Source: Ruminococcus sp. CAG:488 (GTDB lineage Bacteria > Bacillota > Clostridia > Oscillospirales > Acutalibacteraceae). From it: 64,000 nucleotides of DNA. Location of the stretch: contig HF999647.1 of the NCBI GenBank assembly GCA_000434055.1, positions 48,251 through 112,250 on the forward strand, written 5' to 3'. Shown here piece by piece: positions 1 through 29,665 of this stretch; position 1 is the first letter of the stretch, and every line of letters begins with the position of its first letter. Both the position numbers and the translations under genes were made by a program. The notes beneath the pieces were generated by a model. That model did no database searches. It was not told where the DNA came from and saw only the letters and a program-made list of their open reading frames with translations.

Positions 1-797
1 ACAAGCTTCACGGAGAATCTTGCGATATGGAAAGACTTTGTGCAGAGCTTATCAATCATTACAGAAATCTGATGATGATTAAGACGGTAAAGGAACCGCA
101 AAAACTGATTGTATGTACGGATCACGATCTTGAGCTTTATAAAAAACAAGCTGACAAAACGAATCTTTATAAAATACTTAACTGCATTTCTTTGCTTGAA
201 GAAGCTTCAACTGTGTTAAAAACCAGTTCAAGCAAGCGCACTGAAATGGAACTTACGGCAGTTAAAATGACTGTGCCGAATATTTCAAGTGACAATACTG
301 CCGTTATGAGCAGAATTGATAACCTTGAAAGAATTATTAAAAGCGGAAAATTTTCTGCCGAAAAACCGACAGAGAGTTTTAAAGAAGAAGTTAAAACTTC
401 TCAGCCCATTATACAGGAAAAAGATTCTGAGTCTTCCGACACTCCGCCTGAAATTCACAGCGATCTTCCGACAAACGAAACTCCCAATGATACCGAAGAG
501 GATACGCTTTTTAACCAATGGGGTGAGGTGCTTTCGCTCCTTGATGTTTCAGATAAGCCTCTTACAGGGATTCTCGGAGCTTCAACGGCATATGTCAGAG
601 GAGATTTTATTCTCATTAAATGTGACAATCCGGTATTTTCACAGTTCATTCGTCAGAGCAATCATTCAATGGCAATTCGTAAAGCGGTTTTTGACGTAAC
701 AGGCAGAAAATACAGACTCGGAATTTACAAATCAAATGATAATCAACCAACTAACAAGGATCCGCTTGCCGACCTGATAAAAAAGATCAACAGGTGA
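1..797 (+). CDS. dnaX: DNA polymerase III subunit gamma/tau, C-terminal part (5' end lies outside the window; reading frame is open from base 3)
   Basis: The frame is open from the window edge. The tail has a C-terminal-domain-like helical pattern followed by an acidic, S/T-rich linker, and the gene is immediately followed by the conserved ybaB-recR pair (with an inserted GT2 gene between them). Confidence 0.6.
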   Translation, partial: KLHGESCDMERLCAELINHYRNLMMIKTVKEPQKLIVCTDHDLELYKKQADKTNLYKILNCISLLEEASTVLKTSSSKRTEMELTAVKMTVPNISSDNTAVMSRIDNLERIIKSGKFSAEKPTESFKEEVKTSQPIIQEKDSESSDTPPEIHSDLPTNETPNDTEEDTLFNQWGEVLSLLDVSDKPLTGILGASTAYVRGDFILIKCDNPVFSQFIRQSNHSMAIRKAVFDVTGRKYRLGIYKSNDNQPTNKDPLADLIKKINR

Positions 798-1777
798 TTA
801 TTATGTCTCCTAAAATCAGCATAATTATTCCTTCATATAACGAAGAAAAAAATATTTCCCGTTGTCTTGACTCTGTTATGAATCAGACGTTTTCCGATTT
901 TGAAGTTCTTTGCGTTGACGACGGAAGTAACGATAAAACATTTGATATTATAAAAAAATATTCTGAAAAAGACAGCAGAATTATTCCGATGAAGAATCCT
1001 AATAAAGGCGTTTCATCGGCAAGAAATTTCGGCATTGAAAACGCAAAAGGCGATTATATCGGATTTGTTGATTCCGATGATTTTATTCAGCCGCAGATGT
1101 ATGAATTTCTTTACAAAGCCGTTACGGAGAATAACTGCGATTTTTCTGTTTGTCGATATAAAAAAACATCTGAATTTATTCAGAAAAAATTTGAATATAA
1201 AACAGATACTTTTAAACCTGAAAATTTTATAAGCTTTTACGATTCTGAATTTACAAACAATAATGAACTTGTGTTTTCCTCGGCATGTACAAAATTGATT
1301 TCAAAAAAATTTTTAAATGATATTAAATTTAAAAATTACAAAATCGGTGAAGATACGGTTTTTAATTCTGAGATTTATTCAAAAGCAGAAAAGTTTATTT
1401 TTATTGATGCCGAGTTGTATATTTATTTTAATAATACAAAAAGTGTCAGTTTCACAGAGCTTTGGAATGAAAAATGGTTTGACCTTCTTGAAACAAGATT
1501 TATTTCATACGACCTTTTAAAAGAAAAAAATAAAATTCTTTCGGCATTTTATCTTGAGCGAGGAATGAAATTTTTGCTTTCTTATCGCTTTAATTTAAAA
1601 GGCTCGCCAAATGAAAATAAATTTAAAAAACCGATAAAAAAATATTTTAAAAAATATTATATGGCCTTTATGAAATGTGAAAACATTTCTTTAAAAAATA
1701 AAATTTCTGTTCCTATTTTTTTTCTGTTTCCATTTTTATATAACAAGTTCAGAAAAATGACGGACAAAACACTTTAA
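794..1777 (+). CDS. Family 2 glycosyltransferase (GT-A fold)
   Basis: N-terminus IIIPSYNEEKNISRCLDSVMNQT...VLCVDDGSND...GFVDSDD matches the GT2 signature (DxD motif, DDGS). The gene is very AT-rich and Lys-rich and overlaps the dnaX stop. Confidence 0.8.
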   Translation: MIIMSPKISIIIPSYNEEKNISRCLDSVMNQTFSDFEVLCVDDGSNDKTFDIIKKYSEKDSRIIPMKNPNKGVSSARNFGIENAKGDYIGFVDSDDFIQPQMYEFLYKAVTENNCDFSVCRYKKTSEFIQKKFEYKTDTFKPENFISFYDSEFTNNNELVFSSACTKLISKKFLNDIKFKNYKIGEDTVFNSEIYSKAEKFIFIDAELYIYFNNTKSVSFTELWNEKWFDLLETRFISYDLLKEKNKILSAFYLERGMKFLLSYRFNLKGSPNENKFKKPIKKYFKKYYMAFMKCENISLKNKISVPIFFLFPFLYNKFRKMTDKTL

Positions 1778-1795
1778 TTTGAAAGGATAATTACA

Positions 1796-2128
1796 ATGAA
1801 AGCAAGAATACCGGGTGCTCAGAATCAGGGCAACATGATGAAAAAAATCCAGCAGATGCAGGAAGATATGACAAGAATTCAGGAGGAGATTGAAGCAACT
1901 GAATATACTTCTTCCGTAGGCGGCGGAGCTGTTGAAGTTACAGTAAACGGCTCTCATGAAGTTCTTTCAATAAAGATGCAGCCCGACGTTGTTGATCCGG
2001 AGGATATTGAAATGCTTGAGGATCTTCTTATTTCAGCACTTAACGAGAGCATTAAGAAAGCAAACGATGCCATGGATCAGGGCATGGAAAAGGCAAAGGG
2101 CGGACTTTCAATTCCGGGACTGTTTTAA
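1796..2128 (+). CDS. ybaB: YbaB/EbfC-family nucleoid-associated protein
   Basis: About 110 aa with the typical [10 protein letters not shown]...[16 protein letters not shown] pattern, in the canonical position between dnaX and recR. Confidence 0.85.
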
Positions 2129-2130
2129 AA

Positions 2131-2730
2131 ATGGCACGTAATGTTATTCCTCTCACAAATCTAATTGAGCAGTTTGAACGTATGCCCGGAATCGGTCATA
2201 AGAGCGCACAAAAACTTGCTTTTTATATTCTCGGAATGTCTGATGATGAGGTAAAACGCTTTGCTGAAAATATTATCCTTGCAAAGCAAAAAATTCATCA
2301 TTGCAAGGTCTGCTGTGATTTGACCGACAGCGATATTTGCTCAATCTGCAGTGACGAACGCAGAGACCGTTCGGTTATTTGCGTTGTCGAATCTTCAAAG
2401 GATGTTATCGCAATTGAGCGCACCCGTGAATATAACGGGCTTTATCATGTTCTTCACGGTTCAATTTCTCCGATGAACGGCATCGGACCCGATGAAATTA
2501 CAATCAAGGAGCTTCTCTCCCGTCTTTCCGATGAAAACATAAAGGAAATTATTATGGCAACAAATCCGACTGTTGAGGGCGAAGCGACAGCAATGTATAT
2601 TTCACGTCTTATTAAGCCGATGGGTATTAAAGTCTCTCGCCTTGCATACGGTGTGCCGGTCGGTGCCGACCTTGAATATGCTGACGAAATAACGTTAACA
2701 AGAGCGCTTGAAGGCAGACAAATATTGTAA
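2131..2730 (+). CDS. recR: Recombination protein RecR
   Basis: Has a helix-hairpin-helix region ([12 protein letters not shown]), a C4 zinc finger ([17 protein letters not shown]) and a Toprim domain. Length is 199 aa. Confidence 0.9.
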
Positions 2731-2733
2731 CAG

Positions 2734-2888
2734 TTTTCCACACTTTCTTTAACATTCTTTCAACAGCTTTCAACTTTTCAACACTGTTATTTAATTAACA
2801 AAATTTTCAACAAAAAAATAAACACATTTTCAACAAGAAATATTATCCTTAATCGACGTTGTTTCAACAAATTTTCTTGTTTTCCACA
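2734..2888 (+). promoter_or_regulatory. Cluster of at least 8 same-orientation DnaA-box-like 9-mers (TTTTCCACA, TTTTCAACA, TTATCCTTA variants)
   Basis: Motifs start at 2734, 2757, 2775, 2805, 2827, 2843, 2861 and 2880, each 0 to 2 mismatches from TTATCCACA. The first and last are the best match, TTTTCCACA. Confidence 0.55.
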
Positions 2889-2896
2889 CTTTTAAC

Positions 2897-2945
2897 AGGC
2901 CCTACTACTAATACTATAATATTTATATTATTTATTTATCTCAAA
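2897..2945 (+). promoter_or_regulatory. GC clamp (GGCC) plus DnaA-trio-like CTA repeats (CTACTACTAATACTA) plus an AT-rich unwinding stretch, immediately upstream of dnaN
   Basis: The order box, GC-rich spacer, repeated trinucleotides, AT-rich run reproduces the basal unwinding architecture described for Bacillus oriC. Confidence 0.45.
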
Positions 2946-2965
2946 ACCCGACAGGAGGAATTTTA

Positions 2966-4087
2966 ATGAAATTCGTATGCGAAACGTCAAGTCTTTCGGT
3001 AGCATGCCAAAATGTACAAAGAGCGGTATCAACAAAGTCATCTATTCCCGGAGCGGAGGGTATTATGATCAAGACTACCGTTAACGGACTTTCGCTGACA
3101 GGCTACGATCTTGAAATCGGAATCAACACAAATATTTATGCAAAGGTTGAGGAAGAGGGAGCAATTATTATTAACGCAAAGATTCTTTGCGAGATACTCC
3201 GTAAAATTCCCAATCAAACCGTAATATTTGAATCTGATGAAAGAAATCTTGCCGTTATCAGAAGCGGTGACATTAAATATGAAATAATGGGAATTTCTGC
3301 CGAAGAATATCCCGAGCTTCCTACGGTTCAGGGCGGATTTACAATAAATCTTAATAAGAAGCAGCTTGAAGAAATGGTTAAACAAACTATTTTTGCCGTT
3401 GCCGTTACAGACACAAAAGTTGTTTATACAGGTATTAAGTTTGAAATTTCAGATAATGAGCTGAAGCTTATCGCTGTTGACGGCTTCAGAATGGCAATCA
3501 GAAAGGAATTTATTGATTATAAGGGTGAGGATATAACCTTTATTGTTCCTGCAAAAACCATGAATGAGATAATCAAAATTTCAGTTGAGGAAGAAAACGA
3601 AGAAGAGACGGAAATTTCAATCGGAGTAGGCAAGCGTCACATTGTTTTTGAAGTAAACGGCTACAGCGTTATTTCAAGACTTCTTGAAGGAGAATTTCTC
3701 AATTATAAACAGACGATACCGACAACGGCAATGACAACGGTTGAGGTTGATACAAGAAGTCTTATAGAAAGCATTGAGCGTACTTCTCTTATTATCACGG
3801 ACAGAACAAAGAGTCTTATAAACTGCGTATTTGACACAGATTTTATCAGAATATCAAGTATAACGTCATTAGGAACAGCCAGCGACAAGGTAAGCGCAGA
3901 TGTTGAGGGCAGCAGAGTTGAGATAGGTTTTAACAATCGTTACTTTATAGAGGCTCTCAGAGCCTGTAACACAGACAGGGTTAAAATTATACTTAACGGA
4001 GCGGTTTCTCCGATACTTATTCTGCCGACAGAGGGCGACAGCTTTACATTCCTTGTACTTCCCGTGAGGTTGAAGAAAAATGCTTAA
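2966..4087 (+). CDS. dnaN: DNA polymerase III beta sliding clamp
   Basis: 373 aa with three-domain clamp homology (MKFVCETSSL...LNGAVSPILILP) and a strong RBS (GGAGGA). Confidence 0.92.
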   Translation: MKFVCETSSLSVACQNVQRAVSTKSSIPGAEGIMIKTTVNGLSLTGYDLEIGINTNIYAKVEEEGAIIINAKILCEILRKIPNQTVIFESDERNLAVIRSGDIKYEIMGISAEEYPELPTVQGGFTINLNKKQLEEMVKQTIFAVAVTDTKVVYTGIKFEISDNELKLIAVDGFRMAIRKEFIDYKGEDITFIVPAKTMNEIIKISVEEENEEETEISIGVGKRHIVFEVNGYSVISRLLEGEFLNYKQTIPTTAMTTVEVDTRSLIESIERTSLIITDRTKSLINCVFDTDFIRISSITSLGTASDKVSADVEGSRVEIGFNNRYFIEALRACNTDRVKIILNGAVSPILILPTEGDSFTFLVLPVRLKKNA

Positions 4088-4331
4088 CAACAGAAAAATA
4101 AAGCTCAAAATAAAAGAAAAAGAAGTAATTGAAAAACATATAACAACAGAGTTTATAAGACTTGATGCTTTTTTGAAGCTTTGTGATGCGGTTCAGTCCG
4201 GCGGCCATGCAAAAATCGTTATTCAGGACGGTGAAATAAAGGTCAACGGCGAAATCTGCGAGCAGAGAGGAAAAAAACTTCGGGTAGGAGATAAGGTTGA
4301 ATTTGAACACAAAATTTATGAGATAATATGA
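4080..4331 (+). CDS. yaaA: S4-domain RNA-binding protein YaaA
   Basis: 83 aa small S4-like protein overlapping the dnaN stop, in the canonical position between dnaN and recF. Confidence 0.7.
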   Translation: MLNNRKIKLKIKEKEVIEKHITTEFIRLDAFLKLCDAVQSGGHAKIVIQDGEIKVNGEICEQRGKKLRVGDKVEFEHKIYEII

Positions 4332-4341
4332 GAAGCCGACT

Positions 4342-5433
4342 ATGAATATTGAAAGAGCTGTTATAAAAAATTTTCGTAACATTGAAAATATGGAGTTTGA
4401 GCCGAGTAACGGAATAAATGTTATTTACGGTGAAAACGGACACGGAAAAACAAATATTATCGAAAGCATCTGGCTTTTTACCGGATGTAACAGCTTCAGA
4501 ACAAGGAAAAATACGGAGCTTATAAATAAAAAATCAGAAAGCTCAGAGCTTTTTACCGAGTTTAATTCAAACGGCAGACATCAGGAAGCAAAGCTCATAA
4601 TTAAAGAAAAAAAAGAGGCATATTTAAACGGTATAAAACAAATTTCACCGAGAAAATTTCTCGGCGAATTTCAGGCTGTTGTTTTTTCTCCGTCTGTTCT
4701 TTCCGTAATAAGAGATGGTCCGTCGGAAAAAAGAAAATTTCTTGACATTGCAATAAGTCTTATAAGACCTAATTATGCCGCATTGCTTTCAAAATATAAC
4801 AAAACGGTTATACAAAGAAATTCGTTATTAAAGCAGATCGGCACCGAAAAAAAAGGCGAAGATTTGCTTTTTGTTTTTGACGAAGAACTGGCGAGGTGCG
4901 GCGGCAGAATAATTGATTACAGACTGAAATATCTTGATGATTTGAGCAATGCCGCTCCTAAAATTTATTCAGAGATTTCAAACGGCAGAGAAATTATGAA
5001 TATTTCTTACATAAATTCGCTTAAAGAAACGGGATCAAATAATGTCGAATGGTCTGAAATTCTTTATAAATATCTTTCTGAAAACCATGAAAAGGACATT
5101 ATAAGACAAGCTACATCCTTCGGACCTCATAAGGACGATCTTGAAATTTTTCTTGACGAAATGAATGTAAGAAATTACGGTTCACAAGGTCAACAACGCT
5201 CATGTGCACTTTCTTTGAAAATCGGCGAAGCAACAATATTAAATAACATTTCCGGTGAACAGCCTGTTGCGCTGATGGATGATGTAATGAGTGAGCTTGA
5301 CGAAAACAGACAAAAATTTTTAATGAAATTTTTTGACGGATGGCAGGTTTTTGTTACCTGCTGCGATCCGTCTCACAGAAAAAAAATAAAATCCGATAAA
5401 ATATTTGAAATTTGTGACGGAAGGATAGTATAA
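4342..5433 (+). CDS. recF: DNA replication and repair protein RecF
   Basis: Has a Walker A motif (GENGHGKTN) and the SMC-like signature region. Length 363 aa, located downstream of dnaN. Confidence 0.9.
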   Translation: MNIERAVIKNFRNIENMEFEPSNGINVIYGENGHGKTNIIESIWLFTGCNSFRTRKNTELINKKSESSELFTEFNSNGRHQEAKLIIKEKKEAYLNGIKQISPRKFLGEFQAVVFSPSVLSVIRDGPSEKRKFLDIAISLIRPNYAALLSKYNKTVIQRNSLLKQIGTEKKGEDLLFVFDEELARCGGRIIDYRLKYLDDLSNAAPKIYSEISNGREIMNISYINSLKETGSNNVEWSEILYKYLSENHEKDIIRQATSFGPHKDDLEIFLDEMNVRNYGSQGQQRSCALSLKIGEATILNNISGEQPVALMDDVMSELDENRQKFLMKFFDGWQVFVTCCDPSHRKKIKSDKIFEICDGRIV

Positions 5434-5434
5434 A

Positions 5435-5713
5435 ATGTTTCTTCATCTCGGTCAGGATACGGTTATTATAGAGGACGACATAATAGGTATATTTGATCTT
5501 GACACAACGACGGTTTCAAAGCCGACAAGAGATTATCTTAAAACGATGCAAAAGGGCGGAAATGTTGTAAATGTCAGCTATGATTTGCCGAAATCATTTA
5601 TTATTACCTGCAAAAAAAAATCAAAGAAAAAAACAATGTTTATATCACCTATTTCCACAGCAACGTTATTAAAACGATCTGAAAATGTTAATTACCTTAA
5701 AGATATAAAATAA
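5435..5713 (+). CDS. DUF370 family protein (YaaB/RemB-like)
   Basis: N-terminus MFLHLGQDTVIIEDDIIGIFDLD matches the B. subtilis YaaB/RemB family, which conventionally follows recF. Confidence 0.65.
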   Translation: MFLHLGQDTVIIEDDIIGIFDLDTTTVSKPTRDYLKTMQKGGNVVNVSYDLPKSFIITCKKKSKKKTMFISPISTATLLKRSENVNYLKDIK

Positions 5714-5731
5714 CAGAAAGGATAAGCTAAA

Positions 5732-6571
5732 ATGAAAACAGGAATCATTGACTGCGGCGGCGGGCTTAGAGATATATACGGCGCAGGTGTTTTTGACTTT
5801 TGTCTTGATAATAATATTCCGTTTGATGTTGTAATCGGAATTTCTGCCGGCAGCGCAAATATTGCTTCATTCATTTCAGGTCAGCGCGGAAGAAATTACC
5901 GTTTTTATTATGAATATCCTTTCAGAAAAGAATACATGAGTTTTGAAAATTTTATAAATAAAAAATACTATCTTGATCTTGATTATGTCTATGGAGAATT
6001 GAGTAACAGCGGCGGAGAAAATCCTTTTGATTTTGAAAAATTCAGTGAAAATAAATGTGAAAAATATATTATTGCAACAGATGCAAAAACAGGTAAGGCA
6101 CAATATTTTAATGCCAATGAAATGGATAAAAACAATTATTGGATGTTGAAAGCATCTTCGTGTATTCCGGTAGTTTGCTCCCCTGCTGTTGAAAATGATG
6201 TAAGATATTTTGACGGGGGTTTGAGTGATCCGATACCGATCAATTTTGCGATTGAAAAAGGCTGCGAAAAAATTGTTGTTATTTGGACAAAGCCTATTAA
6301 CGATATGGGAAATTTTAAACTTGATGAAATGGCAGGGCATGCTTTAAAAAAGAATTATCCAAATATTTCTAAGGACCTTTTAAACAGAAAGAAAAAGGTT
6401 GAAAAAGCCTTGGAATATGCAAAAAAATTGAGAGATGAAGGAAAGGTTTTGATTGTAAGTCCCGAGAGTATAGGAAAAATGAGTACACTTACTAAAGATA
6501 AAGAAGCACTTGACAGGCTCTATAAAATCGGATATTCCGACGCTGAGAAAATAATTGATTTTATAAAATAA
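5732..6571 (+). CDS. Patatin-like phospholipase
   Basis: Has a glycine-rich oxyanion motif (DCGGGLRDIYGAG), a GxSxG nucleophile motif (GISAGSA) and a DGG catalytic Asp motif. Confidence 0.8.
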   Translation: MKTGIIDCGGGLRDIYGAGVFDFCLDNNIPFDVVIGISAGSANIASFISGQRGRNYRFYYEYPFRKEYMSFENFINKKYYLDLDYVYGELSNSGGENPFDFEKFSENKCEKYIIATDAKTGKAQYFNANEMDKNNYWMLKASSCIPVVCSPAVENDVRYFDGGLSDPIPINFAIEKGCEKIVVIWTKPINDMGNFKLDEMAGHALKKNYPNISKDLLNRKKKVEKALEYAKKLRDEGKVLIVSPESIGKMSTLTKDKEALDRLYKIGYSDAEKIIDFIK

Positions 6572-6576
6572 AAATA

Positions 6577-6614
6577 AGGCTGTGACGAAACTTTAAAATT
6601 TCGCCGCAGCCTTT
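6577..6614. terminator. Bidirectional intrinsic terminator between the patatin gene (+) and PHP paralog 1 (-)
   Basis: Inverted repeat AAGGCTGTGACGAAA...TTTCGCCGCAGCCTT (one wobble pair, one mismatch) flanked by T/A runs. Confidence 0.5.
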
Positions 6615-6628
6615 CTTATTATATTCTA

Positions 6629-9262
6629 TTATCCCATATTTGCAACTGCATTTGTCAGCAATGAATATGCAGAAGAAATATCATTTGATGTTGCAGACGG
6701 ATTACCGAGAACCGTTCCTGCATTCATGAGCGCAGTTGAATAAGCGTTGAAAGCAGTGGTGCTGTAATCTGCCGAATTATAGGCAGCCAAAATCGCAGCA
6801 TTATAAGCAGTTCGGAGTTCAGTCTTATTTACATAATTTGCATTGATCGTTATGTTATAGTAATTGTTATTTTGTCTTTTTCCTCTGAGCGTGATTGTGT
6901 AAGCGGAAATTGTAAGTTTCTTTGTGCCTTCCGTGCCAAGCTTATTCTGATAATTGAGACTGTTATTATATGCACAACCAACCTTAGCTGAAAGATTTGT
7001 TATTGTTGTTGTCGAACCGTCAACAGTCTGCTTGATATATCCGGAAGCAACGTCGTCGCCCTCAATATCGCACTGCCAATAACCGATTTTAAGATTCGGA
7101 ATTTGATTAAGATTTGTTACACGGCTTGAGTCAACATAGATTGTACCTGTTCCGCCGTTAACGGTGTGAGAATCTTTTGCATTTGATTTATGGCTCCAGC
7201 TTCCGTATTCAACGCCGCCGTTAGTCGTCTTTGTAAACCAATCGCCTATACCTGTATTTGATGAAGGAGCTGAATTCGTAAAGAAATTCTTTTTACAAAT
7301 ATATGAACCGCCTGTTACATTGCTAAAGCCAATTGCATAAAGAATACCCTGATTGAAAACGTCTTTGCTATATGTATGAGCCTGTCTTATTCCTGCGCCG
7401 ATTTCATTTGTATTCGGTGAGTAAACATATGAATAAGCCGTTGCTGTTCTCTTTTCACCGTTTTTAAGGGTATATGTTGCAGTCCAAGTTATTGTTTTTC
7501 CCGAACCTGCGGCAGGTGAAGAATAAAGCTTACCGGATGAAACAGATGTTGAAAGAGTTCCGTTTGATGAGCTGTTTCCGTTTGTATAGCTGACTGTTGC
7601 GTCGCTTACAGAAATGCTGACATCTGTTGCTTTATCGCAATTGAAGAAAATGTTACCTGTTGTTTTAGTTGCACTGTTTGAAAGTGAACCGTCAACCTTA
7701 TTCTCTCTGTCAACATAATATTGGAATGACTTTGTTGAAGAATTTGTGTAAATGGTTTCGGGAACATAGAATGTTGTTGTTACAACACCTATATCTGCTT
7801 TGAGTTCAACATTGATTTTAATCTGAAGTCCCGCATTTACAGAAGCCTGAGAAATGCTGAAGCTTCCTGTTTTTGTCTCAAAACCTGTTCTTGAAGCTGT
7901 GTAAGTATAGTTGCCTGCACCGAGCTTATAATAATTATCCGAGTTGCAAGCTTTGATAACATTGCCGTTTGAGTCCTTAACGGTTACAGATGTGTCTGTT
8001 GAAGGAAGAATAAACTGTACAGTGCTTATTTTTGTATCGGACTTTGTTACAAGGAACGGTTGAGCATAGCAGATACCGCCGTCGCCGAGAACATAAAATC
8101 TGACATATGAACCGATTTCGTTTTCAAACTCATTAAGATCAAATGTTATTGTTTCGTTGTCACGGTTAACCTTCTTTTCGGCAACAACCTTGCCGTCGGC
8201 AACCATTTTTACAACATTTGCATTGTACGGGTTAATGCTGATCTGATTTGTCTCTTTATCAACATTAACTCTGCTGATCATCGGAAATTCACCTTGTGCC
8301 TCAAATCCGTCACCAAGCTCTTGCTCGGTTTTCGCAGTTTTTGAGCATGCAAAGAAGGTTCCGTTTTCCATGCTTGTGCGAATATTTGCCTGAGTATTCT
8401 CGGGCATAACAAAATACTGAGCATTATTTGCAACATCGCCGAAATCATGTGCATCATCTTCGCAGAAGCCCCAAATGTTTCTTCCGAGAGGTGCGGTACG
8501 CTTGAGAGTTTCGTCATAAAGATAGCGGTCATTGTGAGTTCTGTTATCCTTTGTATTGACAAGCTCCATACCGATACATGCCGAGTAATTTAAGAAAAGC
8601 TTTGAAAACTTTGTTACAAACTCAGTATTATAAGTATTTATATCATGTCTGCCCTCTGTCCATTCGCCGACATGGTTGATGTGACAGATACCGCCGGCAG
8701 CCTGACTTTTTTTAATTGCACCCTCGGGCCATTTTGCATCAAGCTCAAGGTCACCGTGACCGCAATCCGCATAATAGCTGTTAACATGGCATTTTGTGGT
8801 TGATGCACCGTTAAGCTCAATACCGAGAGGAATCTCGGTCATACCGTCGCCGCCTCTGTCTGAGCCTGTTGTAATCTGCTGATATCTTTCTTCGGAAAGC
8901 TCATCAATATTTCCGTGTGAAAGATACTGATATCCGAAAATTGAAAGACGTGTCTGATCCTTTGTCCAGGAATAGTTAACTGTACCGTGGTCTGTAAGTG
9001 CAAGAGCCTGGTAGCCGAGTGAATAATATTTCTCAATCATATCGTCAAGTTCAATATCGCCGTCGCTTCTGACGGTATGAACATGAGTTGCGCCCTTATA
9101 TGCCTTCCAGGTGTCCCAATTTACTGTTTCATACGGATTGGTGATATCAAAATCATATTTGCCTATTATGTCGTATGAGGAAGCAAAGGCTGTTGCCGGG
9201 ATATAAGCAATCATGGCAACAGCCATCATTACACTGAGAATTACAGATAATATTTTACGCAT
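6629..9262 (-). CDS. Secreted PHP-domain metal-dependent phosphoesterase, paralog 1, with a roughly 470-aa S/T-rich beta-rich C-terminal extension
   Basis: Signal peptide MRKILSVILSVMMAVAMIAYIPATAFA (start at 9262 chosen because of the GGAGGA RBS; the track ORF extends to 9304). PHP motifs HVHTVRSDGD and ALTDHG are present along with many conserved His. Strongly similar to the ORFs at 10026..12089 and 61428..62894. Confidence 0.75.
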   Translation of the reverse strand: MRKILSVILSVMMAVAMIAYIPATAFASSYDIIGKYDFDITNPYETVNWDTWKAYKGATHVHTVRSDGDIELDDMIEKYYSLGYQALALTDHGTVNYSWTKDQTRLSIFGYQYLSHGNIDELSEERYQQITTGSDRGGDGMTEIPLGIELNGASTTKCHVNSYYADCGHGDLELDAKWPEGAIKKSQAAGGICHINHVGEWTEGRHDINTYNTEFVTKFSKLFLNYSACIGMELVNTKDNRTHNDRYLYDETLKRTAPLGRNIWGFCEDDAHDFGDVANNAQYFVMPENTQANIRTSMENGTFFACSKTAKTEQELGDGFEAQGEFPMISRVNVDKETNQISINPYNANVVKMVADGKVVAEKKVNRDNETITFDLNEFENEIGSYVRFYVLGDGGICYAQPFLVTKSDTKISTVQFILPSTDTSVTVKDSNGNVIKACNSDNYYKLGAGNYTYTASRTGFETKTGSFSISQASVNAGLQIKINVELKADIGVVTTTFYVPETIYTNSSTKSFQYYVDRENKVDGSLSNSATKTTGNIFFNCDKATDVSISVSDATVSYTNGNSSSNGTLSTSVSSGKLYSSPAAGSGKTITWTATYTLKNGEKRTATAYSYVYSPNTNEIGAGIRQAHTYSKDVFNQGILYAIGFSNVTGGSYICKKNFFTNSAPSSNTGIGDWFTKTTNGGVEYGSWSHKSNAKDSHTVNGGTGTIYVDSSRVTNLNQIPNLKIGYWQCDIEGDDVASGYIKQTVDGSTTTITNLSAKVGCAYNNSLNYQNKLGTEGTKKLTISAYTITLRGKRQNNNYYNITINANYVNKTELRTAYNAAILAAYNSADYSTTAFNAYSTALMNAGTVLGNPSATSNDISSAYSLLTNAVANMG

Positions 9263-9467
9263 TGAAATTCCTCCAATTTTTTTCCTTATCAAATAGAATA
9301 TCACTATTAAACAAAATAGTCAATAATCTTTAATAATAATTCTCAAAATTATATTTTATGCACAAATAGTTACTTTTACTATCAATATGTGATGATAAAA
9401 TTATGACCTGATGTTGAAAATTTTATAATTATATGATAATATTCTAATCTGTAAAAGGAGCATTGAA

Positions 9468-9998
9468 ATGGATAAATTTATAATTGCACAGGTTTTCGGT
9501 TTTGCAGGTCTCGCCTGTTCCGTTTCCGCTTATCAATGTAAAAAGCATAAAAGCGTTATGCTTTTGAAAACTTCGAATGAGATGCTTTTTGCTTTTCAAT
9601 ATTTTTTTCTCGGCACTTATACCGGAATGGCGATGAATATAATCAGCTCAGTCAGAAATTTAACTTTTTCCTATCTTGTAAAGAAAGAAAAGAATACTCT
9701 CCCCTTCCAGATTTTATTTTGTATGGCATTTATTGTTTCCGGAATTTTTACATGGAAGAATTATCTTAGCCTGATTGTAATTTTTGCAAAGCTTTTGACA
9801 ACGGTTGTTTATGGAATGAAGAATACAAAATATCTTCGTTTTGCGACGGTTCCGACAAGCATTTTTTGGTTGATTTATAATTTCAGTTGCAAAGCTACAG
9901 CCGGAGTTATCTCTGAAATTTTTTCGCTGATTTCATTGATAAGCGCAATAATAAGAATTGATATTATAGGAGAAAAAAATAAAGCAGGTCAGCAATAA
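9468..9998 (+). CDS. Small polytopic inner-membrane protein (YgjV-like)
   Basis: 176 aa with 4 to 5 hydrophobic segments, a GGAG RBS and a terminator hairpin downstream. Confidence 0.45.
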   Translation: MDKFIIAQVFGFAGLACSVSAYQCKKHKSVMLLKTSNEMLFAFQYFFLGTYTGMAMNIISSVRNLTFSYLVKKEKNTLPFQILFCMAFIVSGIFTWKNYLSLIVIFAKLLTTVVYGMKNTKYLRFATVPTSIFWLIYNFSCKATAGVISEIFSLISLISAIIRIDIIGEKNKAGQQ

Positions 9999-10012
9999 CT
10001 GATCTGCTTTAT
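9969..10012. terminator. Bidirectional terminator hairpin
   Basis: Stem AAGCAGGTCAG, loop, CTGATCTGCTT, then a T-run. It lies between convergent genes. Confidence 0.45.
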
Positions 10013-10025
10013 TCATTTGTGATTT

Positions 10026-12089
10026 TTATAAGATTCCGAATAAGTATCTGAAAAACGAAATTATATTTTCATAAAAATTTCTGAAACCTGAAGTTGTTTT
10101 TTCGTCTTTTTTATCTTCAGTTTTTTCCTCTTGATTAGGTTCTTTTTCATCCGGAATGTCCTGTGATATTATACTGCTGTATTCACAGTAAACTGACGAA
10201 GTCTTAATACTCTCGTCTTGAGAAACGTTTGAAAGAAGCAATCCTGCCTGTTCTATAATTGCAAGGTCGTCTGTATTTATTACGCTGTCATGGTTACAGT
10301 CAGCAGCAAGTCTCATTGCCGGAGACGGAGTAAGCATACCGTTTATAATAAAAGAAAGTATTGTTGCATCACGACCGTCGTAAATTCCGTCACCGTTGAT
10401 ATCGCCGAATACTACAACCGTATAGGTTTTAAGAACATTTCCTGTTTTATCGTCAACAATTTTTATTTCATCACCGGTTTTAGCTTTTGAAATATCTTCA
10501 ATTTCAAAATGTGTTCCGTTCTTTAAACCTATTGATTTATTAACCGGATCGGAAATATTCTCAAGTATATTAAATCCATAAACCAAATCATTCTGTTTTG
10601 TAAATGAAAGAGGACCGGAATTCTTAACCAACTCTATATCAACTTTTATTTGTAATCCTGCATCAACGGTTGCCTGAGTAACATTTATTGTTCCAACCTT
10701 TGTTTCATAACCGTCTTTGACAACGGTATATGAATATTTACCTGCGGAAACAAGGAAATAATTTTCATTATTTATTGGATCAATAATATTGCCCTGCTCA
10801 TCTTTAAGAGTGAGAGTTGTATCGGAATAAGGAATATTAAACTGGAGTGTGCATTTAGTATACTCTGTTTTTGTTACAAGGAACGGCTGAACATAGCAGA
10901 TTCCGCCTTTACCGAGAATATAGATACGAACATATGAATTGATCTGATTCTCATAATCGTTAAGGTCGAATGTTATTGTATCATTATCGTTTGCAACGCT
11001 CTTTTCACCGATAACATTGCCGTCGGCAACGATTTTTACCGTGTGAGCATTATAAGGATTGATACTGATTTGATTCGTTTCGTTATCAACATTTACTCTG
11101 CTGACCATAGGAAACGGTCCCTGAGCCTCAAAACCGTCGCCGAGTTCCCAGTCATTCTTCGAAGTTTTTGAACATGCAAAGAATGTTCCGTTTTCCATAC
11201 TTGTACGGATATTTGCCTGAGTATTCTTAGGCATTATAAAATACTGAGCATTGTTTTCAACATCGCCGAAATCATGAGCGTCGTCCTCACAGAATCCCCA
11301 AATGTTTCTTCCCTGCGGAGCCGTGATCTTGAGTGTTTCATCATAAAGATATCGGTCATTGCGAGTTCTGTTATCCTTTGTATTAACAAGCTCCATACCG
11401 ATACATGCCGAGTAATTTAAGAAAAGCTTTGAAAACTTTGTTACAAACTCAGTATTATAAGTATTTATATCATGTCTGCCCTCTGTCCATTCGCCGACAT
11501 GGTTGATGTGACAGATACCGCCGGCAGCCTGACTCTTTTTTACCGCATCCTCAGGCCATTTTGCATCAAGCTCAAGGTCACCGTGACCGCAATCCGCATA
11601 ATAGCTGTTAACATGGCATTTTGTGGTTGATGCACCGTTAAGCTCAATACCGAGAGGAACCTCGGTCATACCGTCTCCGCCTCTGTCAGAACCTGTTGTA
11701 ATCTGCTTATATCTTTCTTCGGTCAGCTCATCAACATTGCCGTGTTTTCCGTACTGATAACCAAAGATCGCAAGTCTCTTTTGATCCTTTGTCCATGAAT
11801 AGTTGACTGTACCGTGATCGGTAAGTGCAAGAGCCTGAAAACCGAGAGAATAATATTTTTCAATCATATCGTTAAGCTCAATATCTCCGTCACTTCTTAC
11901 GGTATGAACATGGGTTGCACCTTTATATGCTTTCCATGTGTCCCAATCAATTGTTTCATAAGGATTTGAAATTGTAAAGTCGTATTGTCCAATCGTATCT
12001 CCTGTTGCTGCGAAAGCCTGGATTGTAAGTGCTGCAACGCTTGAAAGAACAAGGACGATACTCAAAAGAATTGATAAAACTTTTTTCAC
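10026..12089 (-). CDS. Secreted PHP-domain phosphoesterase, paralog 2, with a C-terminal type I dockerin (cellulosomal)
   Basis: GTG start with a GGAGGT RBS and a signal peptide. The N-terminal 420 aa are about 85% identical to paralog 1. Dockerin repeats are GDINGDGIYDGRD and DCNHDSVINTDD. Confidence 0.8.
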   Translation of the reverse strand: MKKVLSILLSIVLVLSSVAALTIQAFAATGDTIGQYDFTISNPYETIDWDTWKAYKGATHVHTVRSDGDIELNDMIEKYYSLGFQALALTDHGTVNYSWTKDQKRLAIFGYQYGKHGNVDELTEERYKQITTGSDRGGDGMTEVPLGIELNGASTTKCHVNSYYADCGHGDLELDAKWPEDAVKKSQAAGGICHINHVGEWTEGRHDINTYNTEFVTKFSKLFLNYSACIGMELVNTKDNRTRNDRYLYDETLKITAPQGRNIWGFCEDDAHDFGDVENNAQYFIMPKNTQANIRTSMENGTFFACSKTSKNDWELGDGFEAQGPFPMVSRVNVDNETNQISINPYNAHTVKIVADGNVIGEKSVANDNDTITFDLNDYENQINSYVRIYILGKGGICYVQPFLVTKTEYTKCTLQFNIPYSDTTLTLKDEQGNIIDPINNENYFLVSAGKYSYTVVKDGYETKVGTINVTQATVDAGLQIKVDIELVKNSGPLSFTKQNDLVYGFNILENISDPVNKSIGLKNGTHFEIEDISKAKTGDEIKIVDDKTGNVLKTYTVVVFGDINGDGIYDGRDATILSFIINGMLTPSPAMRLAADCNHDSVINTDDLAIIEQAGLLLSNVSQDESIKTSSVYCEYSSIISQDIPDEKEPNQEEKTEDKKDEKTTSGFRNFYENIISFFRYLFGIL

Positions 12090-12347
12090 GTTTGTACCTC
12101 CGAATTACAAAATATTCCTTATATAATATAACAAAAAAATTTGAATACGTCAACAATTCATTTGTTATGAATCTAACTTTTTACGTTTTATACAAATGAA
12201 ATTTTTGTTTTTTTACTTTTTATAAAATACATTGTGCAGTTTGACTATTTAATATTATTTTATATATCTTTTTTATACAATTCTAATTATATATTATCAC
12301 TAAATCTTCCAAAAGAAATGGTAAAATAGAAAGAAAGAGGTGATTTA

Positions 12348-13883
12348 ATGTTTTTTAAAAAGAGTATTTCGCTGTTGTTGACTGTTATAACATTTTGTTT
12401 TTCGTTTGTATATAATGTTTCGGCATTTGATAATGACAACGATGATTATAATTTTACAAACCTTATTGTCTTTGCAAAATTTAATGATGAAGAGGAATTT
12501 ATTGACCGTAATTACGGTGAAACCGTTAGAAAGATTACCGACAATTCATACAATACCGCCGAATATAATGTCTCTGATTATTTTTATTCTGTTTCTTCCG
12601 GTAAAGTTAAGATGAAAAGTTTATTTCTTTTCGATAATGGCGGTTCTTTAACGCTTAGCAGAAAAAGAGCTTACTATGCATCTCAAAGCGATGAAAATCC
12701 GGACGGTTATGCAAACAGCCGAGAGCAAGCCGAACGTCTGTATCAATTAAAAGAAGATTGGTCACAAGCAATAAATAATTTGGTAAAAAAAGAAATTACT
12801 GATTACGACGGAAAAGAAAAATATAATTTAGATGAGCTTGATAAAAATAACGATGGATACATTGATTTAATTACGATAATTTATAAGCCAACCGAACAAA
12901 CCAACATTTCCGTTGAATGGGCATCTCCTTTATGGAATTATCGTGATCAAACAAATCTTGTTGAAATTCAAACCGACAAGAAAACTATTCAAAGCCGTGC
13001 GTATGTTCAAATGACAAAGGATTATAAATATCTTTATACCGATACAAAGGGAAATAAAATAACTGCTATCGGTGTTAACTGTCACGAGACGGCTCATGCA
13101 TTCGGTCTTTACGATCTTTATCAGTCGTCGTATCAACCGGTCGGGTATATGTCAGCAATGGGTAAGCATACAACCGAGGTTGCGCAATTTATTTCAGTAA
13201 AAGAACGTGAAGCACTTGGTTGGATAAATAATAAGAATATTTATCACATTTTAAATGAAGGTGATTACACTTTAAAACCTGTAATTGACGGGCTCACCGA
13301 TAATGTAATCGGGTATAAAATGGATATCCCTGAAATAAATAAAACCTTGTATCTTGAATACAGAAGATTTGACGGAAAGGGGAGCAAATACGATTCACAA
13401 AAGAAAGAATTATTCCTTGCAAACGGGTCAAAAATCAAAGGGCTTTCTTTAAAAAGCGGATTGGTTTGCTATTTATTAAAAACCGGTATAAAATTTCCGA
13501 ATAATATGCAGTCAAGTGTTAATAATTGGAATTACAGTGTCGCGGGCGGTCAATATAATAATAAGCCCGATGCCGCAGTATCTCTCGGAGAAGAAATTGA
13601 AATAACAGACGGACTTTATATAAATGTTACAGAAATGACCGAGAATGAATTGACGTTTCATATAGAAGGAAATTTCTTCAATTCATCAAGCCTACCTTCT
13701 GTAAACGGAGTTGAAATTACAACTTTTCCGGATAAAATCTGTGTGGGAGAGAGCTATAATTTTAATGCAAATGTTTTAGGAAAAAATAATCCGCCTCAGA
13801 CGATTATTTGGAGCGTTGAAAACAATACCGATGATAAAACTACGATAGATGAAAAAGGAAAACTTTTTATCGGCGAAAATTAA
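12348..13883 (+). CDS. Secreted zinc metalloprotease (HExxH, M6/InhA-like) with a Big_2-like Ig domain, truncated by an in-frame TAA
   Basis: Signal peptide; HETAHAFGLYDLY zinc-binding motif. The ORF ends at TAA 13881..13883 in the middle of a Big_2-like domain. Confidence 0.6.
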   Translation: MFFKKSISLLLTVITFCFSFVYNVSAFDNDNDDYNFTNLIVFAKFNDEEEFIDRNYGETVRKITDNSYNTAEYNVSDYFYSVSSGKVKMKSLFLFDNGGSLTLSRKRAYYASQSDENPDGYANSREQAERLYQLKEDWSQAINNLVKKEITDYDGKEKYNLDELDKNNDGYIDLITIIYKPTEQTNISVEWASPLWNYRDQTNLVEIQTDKKTIQSRAYVQMTKDYKYLYTDTKGNKITAIGVNCHETAHAFGLYDLYQSSYQPVGYMSAMGKHTTEVAQFISVKEREALGWINNKNIYHILNEGDYTLKPVIDGLTDNVIGYKMDIPEINKTLYLEYRRFDGKGSKYDSQKKELFLANGSKIKGLSLKSGLVCYLLKTGIKFPNNMQSSVNNWNYSVAGGQYNNKPDAAVSLGEEIEITDGLYINVTEMTENELTFHIEGNFFNSSSLPSVNGVEITTFPDKICVGESYNFNANVLGKNNPPQTIIWSVENNTDDKTTIDEKGKLFIGEN

Positions 13884-22040: not shown

Positions 22041-23411
22041 TTATTTTCCTACGCAGAACTGTTTAAAAACCTCATCAACAACCGCTTCGCTCGCCTTTTG
22101 ACCTGTCAATTCAAGCAATGCAGCTATCGCATCATCAATGCAAACGCCGATAGCATCGGGAGTGAGGCCAATATTCAAAGCTTCAAGAGCGTCTTTTAAC
22201 GCATCGGAAGCTTTTTGACAGCAAATGCGCTGTCGTTCGTTGACAAGCATTGCCGATGTTGTATCGAAATTCTTAGTTCCCATCAATTCGGCAACTCGGT
22301 CGCAAAGTTCATTGTAGCCGTCGCCGCTTTTGGCAGAGATGAACAGTGGAGAGCCGAGCTTATTTTTAATGTAATCAACATCAAGACGAGGTTCAAGGTC
22401 TGTTTTATTTATAATAGGTATAACATTTTTGTCTTTGCACTCATCAATAAGTTCCTTATCCTCGTCGGAAAGCGGTTTTGAGAGATCAAAAACAGCGAAT
22501 ACAATAGCGGCGCGCTCAAGCTTCTTTCTGCTTCGTTCAACTCCGAGCTTTTCAACTATGTCGCCTGTCTCTCTCATTCCTGCCGTATCCGAAATTCTGA
22601 GAATGCAGCCGTTGAGGTTAACCGTTTCTTCAACAACGTCTCTTGTTGTGCCTTCAATTTCCGTAACGATAGACCGGTCATAGCCCGTCAAGAGATTCAT
22701 AAGAGTGGATTTTCCAACATTTGGTTTTCCGACAATTGCAGCTTCCACTCCGTTTGTTACTGCCATTCCGCTGTCAAAGTTGCTTAACAAGGCACATAAT
22801 TCTAAATAAGCATTATATATTGTGCTGTAAAGCTCGTTATTGCCTAATTCTTCAATCTCGTCATCGGGATAATCAACCCAAGCGGCAATATGAGCTGCAA
22901 GAGAGAGGAGAGAGGAGTTGATTTTTTCAATTTTACGGCTGAGACTGCCTTCAAGCTGGTTGAAGGCGGCGTTTGCACCCTGTTCGCCTTGAGCGGATAT
23001 AAGAGTCATAACGCTTTCGGCTTCGGAAAGGTCAAGCTTACCGTTAAGAAAAGCTCTTTTTGTGAATTCGCCCGGAGCAGCCGCCTGAGCCCCGTTTTGC
23101 AGAACGAGACGGAGTATTTTTTTCAAAAGAACAACACCGCCGTGGCAATTTATCTCAACGACATCCTCGCCTGTGTAGCTGTGCGGCGCACGAAAAACAA
23201 GACAAACGACCTCATCAACGGCTGTTTCACCGTCAAAAATCCTGCCAAAATAAGCTCTGTAGCCCTTGGAAGAACTGAGCTTTATGCCGTTTACGGAAAC
23301 AAAAATTCTGTCGGCAATTTCAGTTGCATTTTTTCCCGATATTCTGATAATTCCAACGCCGCCGGTACCCAACGGTGTGGATATGGCGGCGATTGCTGAT
23401 AAATCACTCAT
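22041..23411 (-). CDS. mnmE: tRNA modification GTPase MnmE (TrmE)
   Basis: 456 aa with a G domain (GKPNVGKS) and a C-terminal CxGK motif (FCVGK). Confidence 0.9.
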   Translation of the reverse strand: MSDLSAIAAISTPLGTGGVGIIRISGKNATEIADRIFVSVNGIKLSSSKGYRAYFGRIFDGETAVDEVVCLVFRAPHSYTGEDVVEINCHGGVVLLKKILRLVLQNGAQAAAPGEFTKRAFLNGKLDLSEAESVMTLISAQGEQGANAAFNQLEGSLSRKIEKINSSLLSLAAHIAAWVDYPDDEIEELGNNELYSTIYNAYLELCALLSNFDSGMAVTNGVEAAIVGKPNVGKSTLMNLLTGYDRSIVTEIEGTTRDVVEETVNLNGCILRISDTAGMRETGDIVEKLGVERSRKKLERAAIVFAVFDLSKPLSDEDKELIDECKDKNVIPIINKTDLEPRLDVDYIKNKLGSPLFISAKSGDGYNELCDRVAELMGTKNFDTTSAMLVNERQRICCQKASDALKDALEALNIGLTPDAIGVCIDDAIAALLELTGQKASEAVVDEVFKQFCVGK

Positions 23412-23420
23412 TTCGTGACC

Positions 23421-24143
23421 TCACAATTTAAGATTGATATTAAAGCCTTCCAGTCGCATGGCAATGCGTTTAAAGGCTTCCTTTGCCTTTGAGTTATCCA
23501 GCATTCTCATGCCTGTAACGGAGCAATAGGAAATTTTGCTGTCCTCGGGAACAACTCCGATAAGCTGGAGTGACGTTGCGTCAATAACCTCGTCGATATT
23601 GAGATAATGTCCCCGTGTGGTTTGTTTTTTATTAAAACGGTTAATAATAAGCTTGATTTCTCCGACACCGAGCGTTGAAAGCTTGTCGCCGGCAAAGGAA
23701 CCGACACGAACACAGACATCGTCGGCAGTTGAAACGATTATTCCTTCATCGGCGCATGCCGCAGCGAGAAGAAAACCACCGCTGACACCAGCAGGAGCGT
23801 CCATAAGAATATAATCAAAGCTGTCATCATAGTTTTCAATCATTTCCATGACACTTTTTTCATTATATTCGTCGCTAAAATAGGTCGGAGCGGTCAGGAG
23901 AGACGGTCCGACTGTTGAACGAAGAGCCTGAGCAGGCTCGCATGAGCCTGAAATCACGTCGCCCCAGTTAAAAATTCCTGTGTCATCAGAAGCAAGAATA
24001 AGGTCAAGGCACCCCATTCCGATATCAAAATCAACAACCAAAACGTTTTGACCCATGGAGCAAAGCTCAATGGCAATGCCGGCGGTCAGTGAAGATTTTC
24101 CCACTCCGCCTTTGCCCGAAGCCAAAACAATTTTTCTTGCCAT
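23421..24143 (-). CDS. MinD/ParA-family ATPase (MinD-like, 240 aa, no obvious C-terminal amphipathic helix)
   Basis: Deviant Walker A GKGGVGKS. DFDIGMGCLDLIL and LIGVVPED align to MinD. Confidence 0.6.
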   Translation of the reverse strand: MARKIVLASGKGGVGKSSLTAGIAIELCSMGQNVLVVDFDIGMGCLDLILASDDTGIFNWGDVISGSCEPAQALRSTVGPSLLTAPTYFSDEYNEKSVMEMIENYDDSFDYILMDAPAGVSGGFLLAAACADEGIIVSTADDVCVRVGSFAGDKLSTLGVGEIKLIINRFNKKQTTRGHYLNIDEVIDATSLQLIGVVPEDSKISYCSVTGMRMLDNSKAKEAFKRIAMRLEGFNINLKL

Positions 24144-24164
24144 TTGATCACTTCCTGTTCTTTT

Positions 24165-26225: not shown

Positions 26226-26257
26226 TTTTTCACTCCTTTTTTGAAAATTTTTTGGTT

Positions 26258-27641: not shown

Positions 27642-27678
27642 TCCTCTTCACCTCCTTGATTTGTAGAAAGTTTTTTCA

Positions 27679-29588: not shown

Positions 29589-29665
29589 GTCTCCGTAGCT
29601 CAGCAGGATAGAGCGTTCGCCTCCTAAGCGAAAGGCCGTGGGTTCGAATCCCGCCGGGGACGCCA
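29589..29665 (+). tRNA. tRNA-Arg (anticodon CCT), with encoded CCA end
   Basis: A cloverleaf can be drawn with acceptor stem GTCTCCG/CGGGGAC and a TPsiC arm GGTTCGAATCC. The anticodon loop is CTCCTAA and the 3' end is CCA. Confidence 0.85.

Follow-up and report, generated by a model that had tools for sequence, protein, structure and literature searches.

The window analysed here, by which we mean the whole stretch of 64,000 nucleotides from Ruminococcus sp. CAG:488 (contig HF999647.1, positions 48,251 to 112,250), carries near its left end an intergenic spacer between recR and dnaN that resembles a chromosomal replication origin (oriC). The window starts with the 3' part of dnaX, which is followed by a gene for a family-2 glycosyltransferase (GT2), by ybaB and by recR, all on the plus strand; recR sits where the standard Firmicute gene order has dnaA. 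The recR–dnaN spacer is 235 bp long (2731–2965) with a G+C content of 26%, and leads into dnaN, yaaA, recF and remB. Unlike in relatives with the standard order, remB is not followed by gyrB–gyrA here. The features of the spacer and of its flanks, in order of position, are these:

2131–2730, plus strand: recR (TIGR00615, E = 8e-85), the last gene of dnaX–(GT2)–ybaB–recR.
2734–2783, plus strand: distal array of five DnaA boxes in the same orientation with starts 8–12 bp apart, namely TTTTCCACA at 2734–2742, TCTTTAACA at 2746, CTTTCAACA at 2757, CTTTCAACT at 2767 and TTTTCAACA at 2775.
2804–2869, plus strand: middle boxes, TTTTCAACA at 2804–2812 and again at 2827–2835, and GTTTCAACA at 2861–2869.
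2880–2897, plus strand: proximal tandem boxes, TTTTCCACA at 2880–2888 abutting CTTTTAACA at 2889–2897.
2892–2920, plus strand: sigma-70-type promoter-like site, TTAACA and TATAAT separated by 17 nt (11 of 12 consensus positions), the best such site in 2500–3100.
2898–2901, plus strand: GC-rich spacer GGCC, which together with the second proximal box makes 13 bp from the first box to the first trio.
2902–2916, minus strand: five DnaA-trios, CTA CTA CTA ATA CTA on the top strand and 3'-GAT GAT GAT TAT GAT-5' on the bottom strand.
2909–2946, no strand: AT-rich tract, the candidate DNA unwinding element, of which 2915–2939 is 100% A+T.
2954–2958, plus strand: ribosome-binding site of dnaN, GGAGG, the core GAGG of which is invariant in the alignment described below.
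2966–4087, plus strand: dnaN, with its ATG at 2966 (NCBIfam TIGR00663).
4080–4331, 4342–5433 and 5435–5713, plus strand: yaaA (TIGR02988), recF (TIGR00611) and remB (NF046065).

The spacer contains ten 9-mers resembling DnaA boxes, all of them on the plus strand; the weaker copies are TCTTTAACA (2746), CTTTCAACA (2757), CTTTCAACT (2767), GTTTCAACA (2861) and CTTTTAACA (2889). The trios are the presumed single-strand binding track of a DnaA filament. The AT-rich tract accommodates the least stable of the 63,971 30-mers of the window (2909–2938, ΔG37 = −24.6 kcal/mol; window mean −38.8, s.d. 3.8), which begins inside the trios. An earlier interpretation that used no database searches, called the sequence-only reading below, had reported same-strand boxes, GGCC, trio-like repeats and an AT run extending to the dnaN ribosome-binding site. 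This is how the sequence reads, and the positions given for the boxes are right apart from one TTTTCAACA box, which had been put at 2805 and starts at 2804. The same interpretation had noted that recR and not dnaA lies upstream, that dnaA, gyrB and gyrA are missing from the window and that there are two origin-type blocks, dnaN–recF–remB and parAB–noc–rsmG–mnmGE. NCBIfam assignments confirm recR and both blocks, the second being parB–parA–noc–rsmG–mnmG–mnmE on the minus strand at 16.7–23.4 kb, and tblastn gives no match to dnaA, gyrB or gyrA in the 64-kb window. A search for a terminator between recR and dnaN gave none, and the spacer has no match in Rfam; the sole Rfam match of the window is a tRNA gene (29589–29662, plus strand) inside a 25-kb run of minus-strand genes.

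The elements of the spacer follow one another as they do in the basal unwinding system (BUS) known from bacterial origins, reportedly described by Richardson in 2016 and 2019, alongside Pelliciari in 2021. The search rules for a BUS [PMC8287927 (Pelliciari et al., 2021)] call for a box with no more than two mismatches to TTATCCACA, optionally followed by a tandem box with no more than four, a spacer of 0–16 bp (mode 13) that ends in a short GC-rich stretch, and three or more consecutive trios whose central adenine on the bound strand is conserved, a 3'-GAT-5' trio being preferred beside the box; in the commonest arrangement the upstream box is the better and the downstream box the weaker one. 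In the recR–dnaN spacer, TTTTCCACA at 2880–2888 differs from TTATCCACA at one position and the tandem box CTTTTAACA at four, so that the upstream box is the better of the two, the spacer has the modal length of 13 bp and ends in GGCC, and five trios with a central adenine follow. Judged by its sequence, the spacer agrees with every published criterion of a BUS. A composite search stricter than the rule of PMC8287927 (a box with at most two mismatches, 0–16 bp, at least four of five [C/T]TA trios) returns a single match in the window, at 2880 with the 13-bp spacer, against 0.01–0.025 expected per simulated 64 kb.

Counts of boxes by themselves are less telling and depend on stringency. The motif TTWTCMACA has 12 matches in the 64 kb against 4.9 expected, a number that none of 100 shuffles reaches, and five of the 12 lie within 155 bp on one strand; exact TTTTCCACA, on either strand, is found in the 64 kb only at its two positions in the spacer. 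With up to two mismatches allowed there are 348 boxes in 64 kb, and the count in the spacer has P = 0.024 against a model of its own composition; a loose box count alone is not significant in such AT-rich DNA. At the same threshold an equally dense cluster, of mixed strands, lies inside a gene at 6.3 kb, and TTATCCACA with up to one mismatch is not enriched across the window.

The gene order is shared by a whole clade. One genome per species was scanned, which gave 45 loci, and two further lineages were added at 64–65% DnaN identity. The closest loci belong to Ruminococcus sp. CAG:563 and to metagenome-assembled genomes from the guts of humans and animals that carry the labels Acutalibacteraceae, Ruminococcaceae or Clostridia. 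The public assembly collection has the identical RecR indexed in 1,965 blocks, the longest contigs exceeding 1 Mb; long contigs with the locus (0.49–0.64 Mb, and above 1 Mb) include OIZT01000001.1, UOIY01000001.1 and scaffold_3 of ERZ28660196. The order dnaX–(glycosyltransferase)–ybaB–recR–spacer–dnaN–yaaA–recF–remB is present in every locus long enough to judge. Independent assemblies and different species share dnaX–ybaB–recR–BUS–dnaN at 48 loci, where DnaN identities are 60–99%, so the order is neither an assembly artefact nor recent. Within 10 kb, dnaA, gyrB, gyrA, jag, yidC and rnpA are absent from all 48 clade loci. The glycosyltransferase gene (794–1777) is an indel polymorphism within the otherwise fixed dnaX–ybaB–recR unit, as seen at the matching site in L017, L021–L025, L034, L036, L043 and L051. 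One clade locus, L049 (Ruminococcaceae bacterium RUG13437), has two tandem dnaN genes after the origin module (5661–6773 and 6819–7943), the product of the second being 60% identical to DnaN of the window.

Eight relatives with DnaN identities of 54–62% have the standard order dnaA–dnaN–yaaA–recF–remB(–gyrB–gyrA), in some of them with jag–yidC–yidD–rnpA–rpmH upstream of dnaA on the opposite strand. Their dnaA–dnaN spacers align with the spacer of the window in the distal boxes, the proximal pair, the GC spacer, the trios, the AT tract and the ribosome-binding site, which identifies the window element as the oriC2/incC half of the ancestral Firmicute origin. On the strength of this alignment, the recR–dnaN spacer is taken to be orthologous to the dnaA–dnaN origin region (oriC2). 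Of the standard bipartite layout, in which dnaA stands between two box clusters with rpmH–rnpA beyond, the window species displays the oriC2 half, with boxes, trios and an unwinding element upstream of dnaN, and not the layout as a whole.

The proximal module is highly constrained. In an alignment of all clade loci with the eight standard-order relatives (52 sequences, 38 distinct) the layout of 9 + 9 + 4 nucleotides, hence the 13-bp spacer, is invariant. The position of the GC spacer is occupied by a 4-mer that is mostly G+C, a few sequences having one or two A/T. All 38 distinct sequences have exactly five trios, with T as the middle base at 189 of 190 positions (without exception in four trios, in 37 of 38 sequences in the fifth); A predominates at the third position, and the first is variable (C, then A, then T). 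The three-base periodicity ends after the fifth trio and plain AT-rich DNA lies beyond it. A fixed middle T combined with a variable first base is the pattern predicted by trios that bind DnaA as single-stranded DNA, and is not predicted by a promoter spacer or by generic AT-rich DNA.

The more distant boxes are kept to different degrees. The distal array is conserved in the clade and in the standard-order relative L054; the first middle box (2804) is TTTTCCACA in most relatives and the other middle boxes are less conserved. The abundance of TTTTCAACA, which had been remarked on as unusual, loses its significance in this comparison: most relatives read TTTTCCACA at the same positions and one standard-order relative has TTTTCAACA/GTTTCAACA as its proximal pair, so the C-to-A variant is local drift and no special feature. 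Same-strand boxes number 4–8 per spacer in the clade, with almost none on the opposite strand, and 3–7 in standard-order oriC2; with medians of 5 and 4, respectively, the idea that extra boxes compensate for a lost oriC1 is weak at best. In some relatives the second proximal box includes TTCGACA (L049, GTTTCGACA; compare AATCGACG at 2846–2853 of the window), the complement of the Spo0A '0A-box', which overlaps DnaA boxes in B. subtilis oriC.

The sequence-only reading had suggested that dnaA be located in the assembly. From −18 kb to +73 kb of the spacer the gene is excluded, as are gyrB, gyrA, rnpA, rpmH, yidC and jag, and its site was not located. The left side was walked to −18 kb by a look-up of recR and a metagenome scan with iorA, the right side to +73 kb with the last gene of the window as query. 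Independent assemblies of the species repeatedly end 37–52 kb left of the spacer, where there may be a repeat such as an rRNA operon; the 492-kb contig OIZT01000001.1 crosses the break. In the window and 158 loci, searches for dnaA by regular expression and tblastn gave no match in any clade locus. DnaA of L054, the closest standard-order relative, was also searched against the protein collection and the best 120 matches were clustered. Eight representatives of the main DnaA groups among these 120, including L054, all precede dnaN and none belongs to the recR–dnaN clade; nor does any DnaA cluster among the best 120 have the abundance expected for the window species. With no clade DnaA among these 120, it must rank below matches that are 53–59% identical to DnaA of L054.

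Evidence on the direction of replication comes from GC skew. The raw skew is dominated by gene orientation, so orientation and position were separated gene by gene in the window and 8 kb of upstream sequence of the same species (about 60 genes). Left of the spacer the mean coding-strand skew is 0.03 (10 plus-strand genes); right of it, it is 0.12 for 26 plus-strand genes and 0.02 for 24 minus-strand genes. Left-plus genes thus differ from right-plus genes (P = 0.0007) and not from right-minus genes (P = 1.0), the two right-hand classes differing from each other with P = 2e-6. Another 10 kb leftward (ileS, azlCD, acyl-CoA ligase), the values are just as low. A change-point fit places an origin-sense switch at 0.8–3.0 kb (R2 0.47–0.48, compared with 0.25 for no switch). 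The orientation-corrected polarity, that is, changes within about 2 kb of the spacer and in the sense of an origin, as is expected of an oriC.

The switch is reproduced in other species. Where minus-strand genes occupy the left flank, their skew is high, of the leading-strand type, in nine of ten loci, and right-plus skew exceeds right-minus skew in 26 of 29 loci; of all these comparisons, that of left-minus genes across species best escapes confounding by gene content. Skew at four-fold sites has the same direction, but housekeeping genes are C-rich on either strand (codon usage, high expression), and because of this confounding the class comparison and its cross-species replication were relied on instead. 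A divergent spacer of 900 bp at 39908–40816 was considered as an alternative origin and rejected, as it has no DnaA boxes or trios and a switch at 40.8 kb gives an R2 of 0.001. It is the place at which the genes change from minus to plus strand and at which the raw skew has its minimum, and it contains a 108-aa minus-strand open reading frame (40239–40565).

With a probability of about 0.8, we read the recR–dnaN spacer as a working chromosomal origin or at least a DnaA-dependent unwinding module, an incC/oriC2-type BUS that has been kept with dnaN; most likely dnaA, oriC1, rpmH–rnpA–yidC–jag and gyrBA were split off from it in the ancestor of a family-level, Acutalibacteraceae-like clade. Sequence anatomy, conservation, oriC2 orthology and the skew switch were computed here. 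The main proposal of the sequence-only reading, an oriC-type BUS upstream of dnaN within a rearranged origin region that has its dnaA elsewhere, is supported by the BUS criteria, the oriC2 orthology and the skew switch. The alternative offered with it, a relic or secondary DnaA-binding module, is unlikely, since spacing, five trios and AT tract are tightly constrained in some 40 species.

We infer DnaA binding, unwinding and firing in the following form. DnaA, encoded elsewhere, would bind the ten same-orientation boxes, and the distal array (2734–2783) would enrich DnaA locally at the proximal pair (2880–2897). From this pair a filament of ATP-DnaA would grow over the 4-bp GC spacer onto the five bottom-strand trios (3'-GAT-5' type) and open the adjacent 25–30 bp A+T tract, on which the helicase would be loaded; forks would then depart bidirectionally. 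Because a strong promoter-like site for dnaN overlaps the module, DnaA occupancy probably governs dnaN transcription as well, with the origin module doubling as dnaN promoter. As for the origin of the locus, we speculate that the BUS–dnaN–yaaA–recF–remB block may have been transposed to a site downstream of recR, which would also account for the uniform plus-strand orientation of the genes on the left. B. subtilis has its recR on the same strand, rightward of the origin by a few tens of kb.

Several observations weigh against the spacer being an origin. The minimum of the raw cumulative GC skew of the window is at about 40 kb and not at the spacer; the skew check that had been proposed to place oriC is misleading in this raw form and points to the spacer once orientation is corrected for. 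The corrected skew in turn spans only about 80 kb and some 60 genes, with gene content and level of expression as partial confounders. Flanking genes, which are typically though not by definition co-oriented with the forks at an origin, are not so in the window species: about 18 kb left of the spacer are nearly all on the plus strand, including ileS, and thus head-on to the leftward fork, and to the right 14.4–39.9 kb are entirely on the minus strand (serS, fba, parAB, mnmGE, mreBCD, glycogen genes). There is no oriC1-like box cluster within 10 kb in the window species, and oriC2 of C. difficile alone is not unwound in vitro without oriC1 (PMC7561715). The promoter-like site that overlaps the element could explain part of its conservation. 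Finally, that the clade has a DnaA we infer only from the conserved boxes and trios; these argue strongly against a clade devoid of any conventional dnaA, which is highly improbable. As regards orientation, distant clade members (L057, L058) have minus-strand genes left of dnaX, and the plus strand carries leuS, together with the S10 ribosomal-protein operon, some 70 kb rightward, as expected for the right replichore.

The wider neighbourhood has further peculiarities. Upstream of mnmE (22041–28665, minus strand) lies minD–pbp2–mreD–mreC–mreB and not jag–yidC–rnpA–rpmH; the mnmE/minD–pbp2–mre junction is a second breakpoint of the ancestral origin neighbourhood. In R. bromii-type standard-order relatives (L066:1-6903, L067:1-6575, L069:1-7009) the block mnmE–mnmG–rsmG–(noc)–parA–parB–serS is on the plus strand to the left of jag–rpmH. 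Compared with B. subtilis it is inverted, and the leftward fork meets it head-on, so that rearrangement around the origin seems to be a trait of the family. G+C content is 33–38% over the first 13 kb (1–13000), which comprise the origin block, two PHP/CehA-like genes and an M6 protease, and 42–49% beyond (14000–64000). The two large paralogous CehA/McbA-like (PHP-domain) metallohydrolases are encoded just right of the origin block (6629–9304 and 10026–12089, both on the minus strand); at least one has a weak dockerin match in a contig of the same species, and the pair would fit a cellulosome- or amylosome-type organism.

The explanation that competes best with the reading above, improbable as we hold it to be, is that a bipartite origin has been split and that the spacer, as one of its halves, unwinds only with the help of a distant oriC1 cluster beside dnaA, either by long-range DnaA–DnaA looping or just by the supply of DnaA. 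It would accord with the dependence of C. difficile oriC2 on oriC1 in vitro, with the bipartite origins of B. subtilis and H. pylori (PMC7561715) and with the distal box of B. subtilis, which acts over several hundred bp through looping (PMC6669920). In the window species, dnaA must lie more than 18 kb to the left or more than 70 kb to the right, a far greater distance than any loop has been shown to bridge, and this species, like most clade loci, has no second box cluster within 10 kb. One distant member, L057, does have a tight second cluster of well-matching DnaA boxes (4555–4632; CTATCCACA ... TTATCAACA TTTTCCACA tag TTTTCCACA) in the spacer upstream of ogg, 5.3 kb left of the BUS. In the standard-order relative L074 (1504–2655), ogg and nth are directly upstream of dnaA, and the L057 cluster may be what is left of oriC1 or of the region of the dnaA promoter. 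An 87-aa open reading frame beside it, considered as a remnant of dnaA, has no similarity to DnaA. The spacer of the window, moreover, already possesses a distal array and a proximal pair, both of the subregions that incC requires (PMC6669920).

A second alternative, less probable still, is that the spacer is a retired origin half which survives as a DnaA-regulated dnaN promoter: the boxes would couple transcription of dnaN (and recF) to the level of DnaA, and replication would start elsewhere, at or near the unlocated dnaA. The promoter-like site (2892–2920) coincides exactly with box 2, GC spacer, trios and the beginning of the AT tract; its spacing falls within the 16–18 nt of a sigma-70 promoter and it stands upstream of a gene, an assignment made by consensus match alone. 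It is the probable promoter of dnaN, which needs one, the dnaA promoter that drives the standard operon having been lost. In B. subtilis, DnaA-box clusters outside oriC are known that regulate their neighbours (PMC3245932), and the largely head-on flanking genes would also sit more easily with a spacer from which no forks depart. A promoter, however, has no need of a fixed distance of 13 bp between box and trios, or of five NTA repeats in its spacer whose middle base never changes. By inspection, clade members again have a −10-like hexamer with this spacing; it is poorer in the standard-order relatives, yet these have kept the trio tract as well. Forks arriving from the left would give the plus-strand genes on the left a leading-strand skew, which is absent; instead the corrected skew switches at the spacer in the origin sense, both in the window species and in further ones whose flanks differ.

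That T-rich 9-mers have clustered by chance in AT-rich intergenic DNA, for which one might cite the 348 loosely matching boxes, the dense mixed-strand cluster at 6.3 kb and the lack of window-wide enrichment of TTATCCACA with up to one mismatch, is refuted by comparison, the element being conserved in about 40 species and orthologous to oriC2, and is no easier to reconcile with ten boxes on one strand and a composite element that is unique in the window.

The reading of the spacer as an origin admits a bolder form, in which the clade has long replicated from a monopartite, oriC2-only origin that is self-sufficient in vivo without dnaA or oriC1 in cis. We advance this tentatively, at slightly less than even odds. 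Firmicute origins are commonly taken to be bipartite and to lie in a conserved rnpA–rpmH–dnaA–dnaN context (described as conserved in PMC7561715). If true, a monopartite origin would be an example from nature against the bipartite requirement found with C. difficile DNA in vitro and with B. subtilis origin plasmids, and the position of a Firmicute origin would be tied to dnaN and not to dnaA. There are practical consequences, as origin finders use dnaA as their main indicator gene and many genome records start at dnaA: origin calls, replichore assignments and peak-to-trough growth estimates anchored at dnaA would err here unless they are anchored at recR–dnaN. The clade, one of abundant uncultured gut Clostridia, offers a natural experiment on the need for oriC1 and for linkage to dnaA; it would also show the speed with which strand composition re-equilibrates after a rearrangement close to the origin, and that numerous head-on essential genes beside an origin are tolerated.

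Among known systems, incC of B. subtilis comes closest. It has seven boxes in distal and proximal subregions and essential trios, and its DnaA-dependent unwinding has been demonstrated (PMC6669920). Common to incC and the window element are the position upstream of dnaN, the distal boxes, the proximal tandem pair with the better box upstream, boxes that face the trios, a 13-bp spacer with about 4 bp of GC, trios of the 3'-GAT-5' type and an AT tract. The window differs in that the upstream gene is recR, that incA/incB (oriC1) are not nearby and that gyrBA does not follow remB; it has ten boxes, degenerate and of the TTTTCMACA type, compared with seven that include consensus ones, its trios are overlapped by a near-consensus promoter, and it is known from its sequence alone. 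For C. difficile, a member of the same class (Clostridia), DnaA-dependent unwinding has been demonstrated in the dnaA–dnaN region [PMC7561715 (Oliveira Paiva et al., 2020)]. Its trio tract, CACCTACTACTATTACTACTATGA, is nearly identical to GGCCCTACTACTAATACTATAAT in the window, and its oriC2 and those predicted in other clostridia likewise have 5–9 boxes and an unwinding element that follows directly on the trios and precedes the dnaN ribosome-binding site (PMC7561715). The difference again lies in the surroundings, the window species being without dnaA, rpmH–rnpA or oriC1 from −18 kb to +73 kb.

An oriC that is linked to dnaN with dnaA encoded elsewhere has a precedent in Synechococcus elongatus PCC 7942 and other cyanobacteria (PMC7198777), in another phylum and with an unrelated origin sequence, and origin predictors already make provision for an oriC away from dnaA (PMC10225481). 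Compared with the cyanobacterial case, that of the window is a secondary loss of linkage in a group where linkage is deemed conserved, and one in which orthology to the dnaA–dnaN spacer can be demonstrated. In Escherichia coli, oriC (gidA–mioC) lies about 42 kb from dnaA and has IHF and Fis sites, 13-mers and a modified BUS layout. It resembles the window element in being unlinked from the initiator gene and in its arrayed boxes that face an unwinding element; the neighbouring genes are different. To our knowledge, the DnaA-box clusters that B. subtilis has outside oriC have no trios at fixed spacing, no adjoining unwinding element and no skew switch; the window element, unlike these clusters, combines all three. 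What they have in common is an intergenic group of boxes able to regulate the adjacent gene (PMC3245932). The window element is thus an orthodox BUS in a gene context that is unorthodox for Firmicutes, and origins unlinked from dnaA are already known elsewhere.

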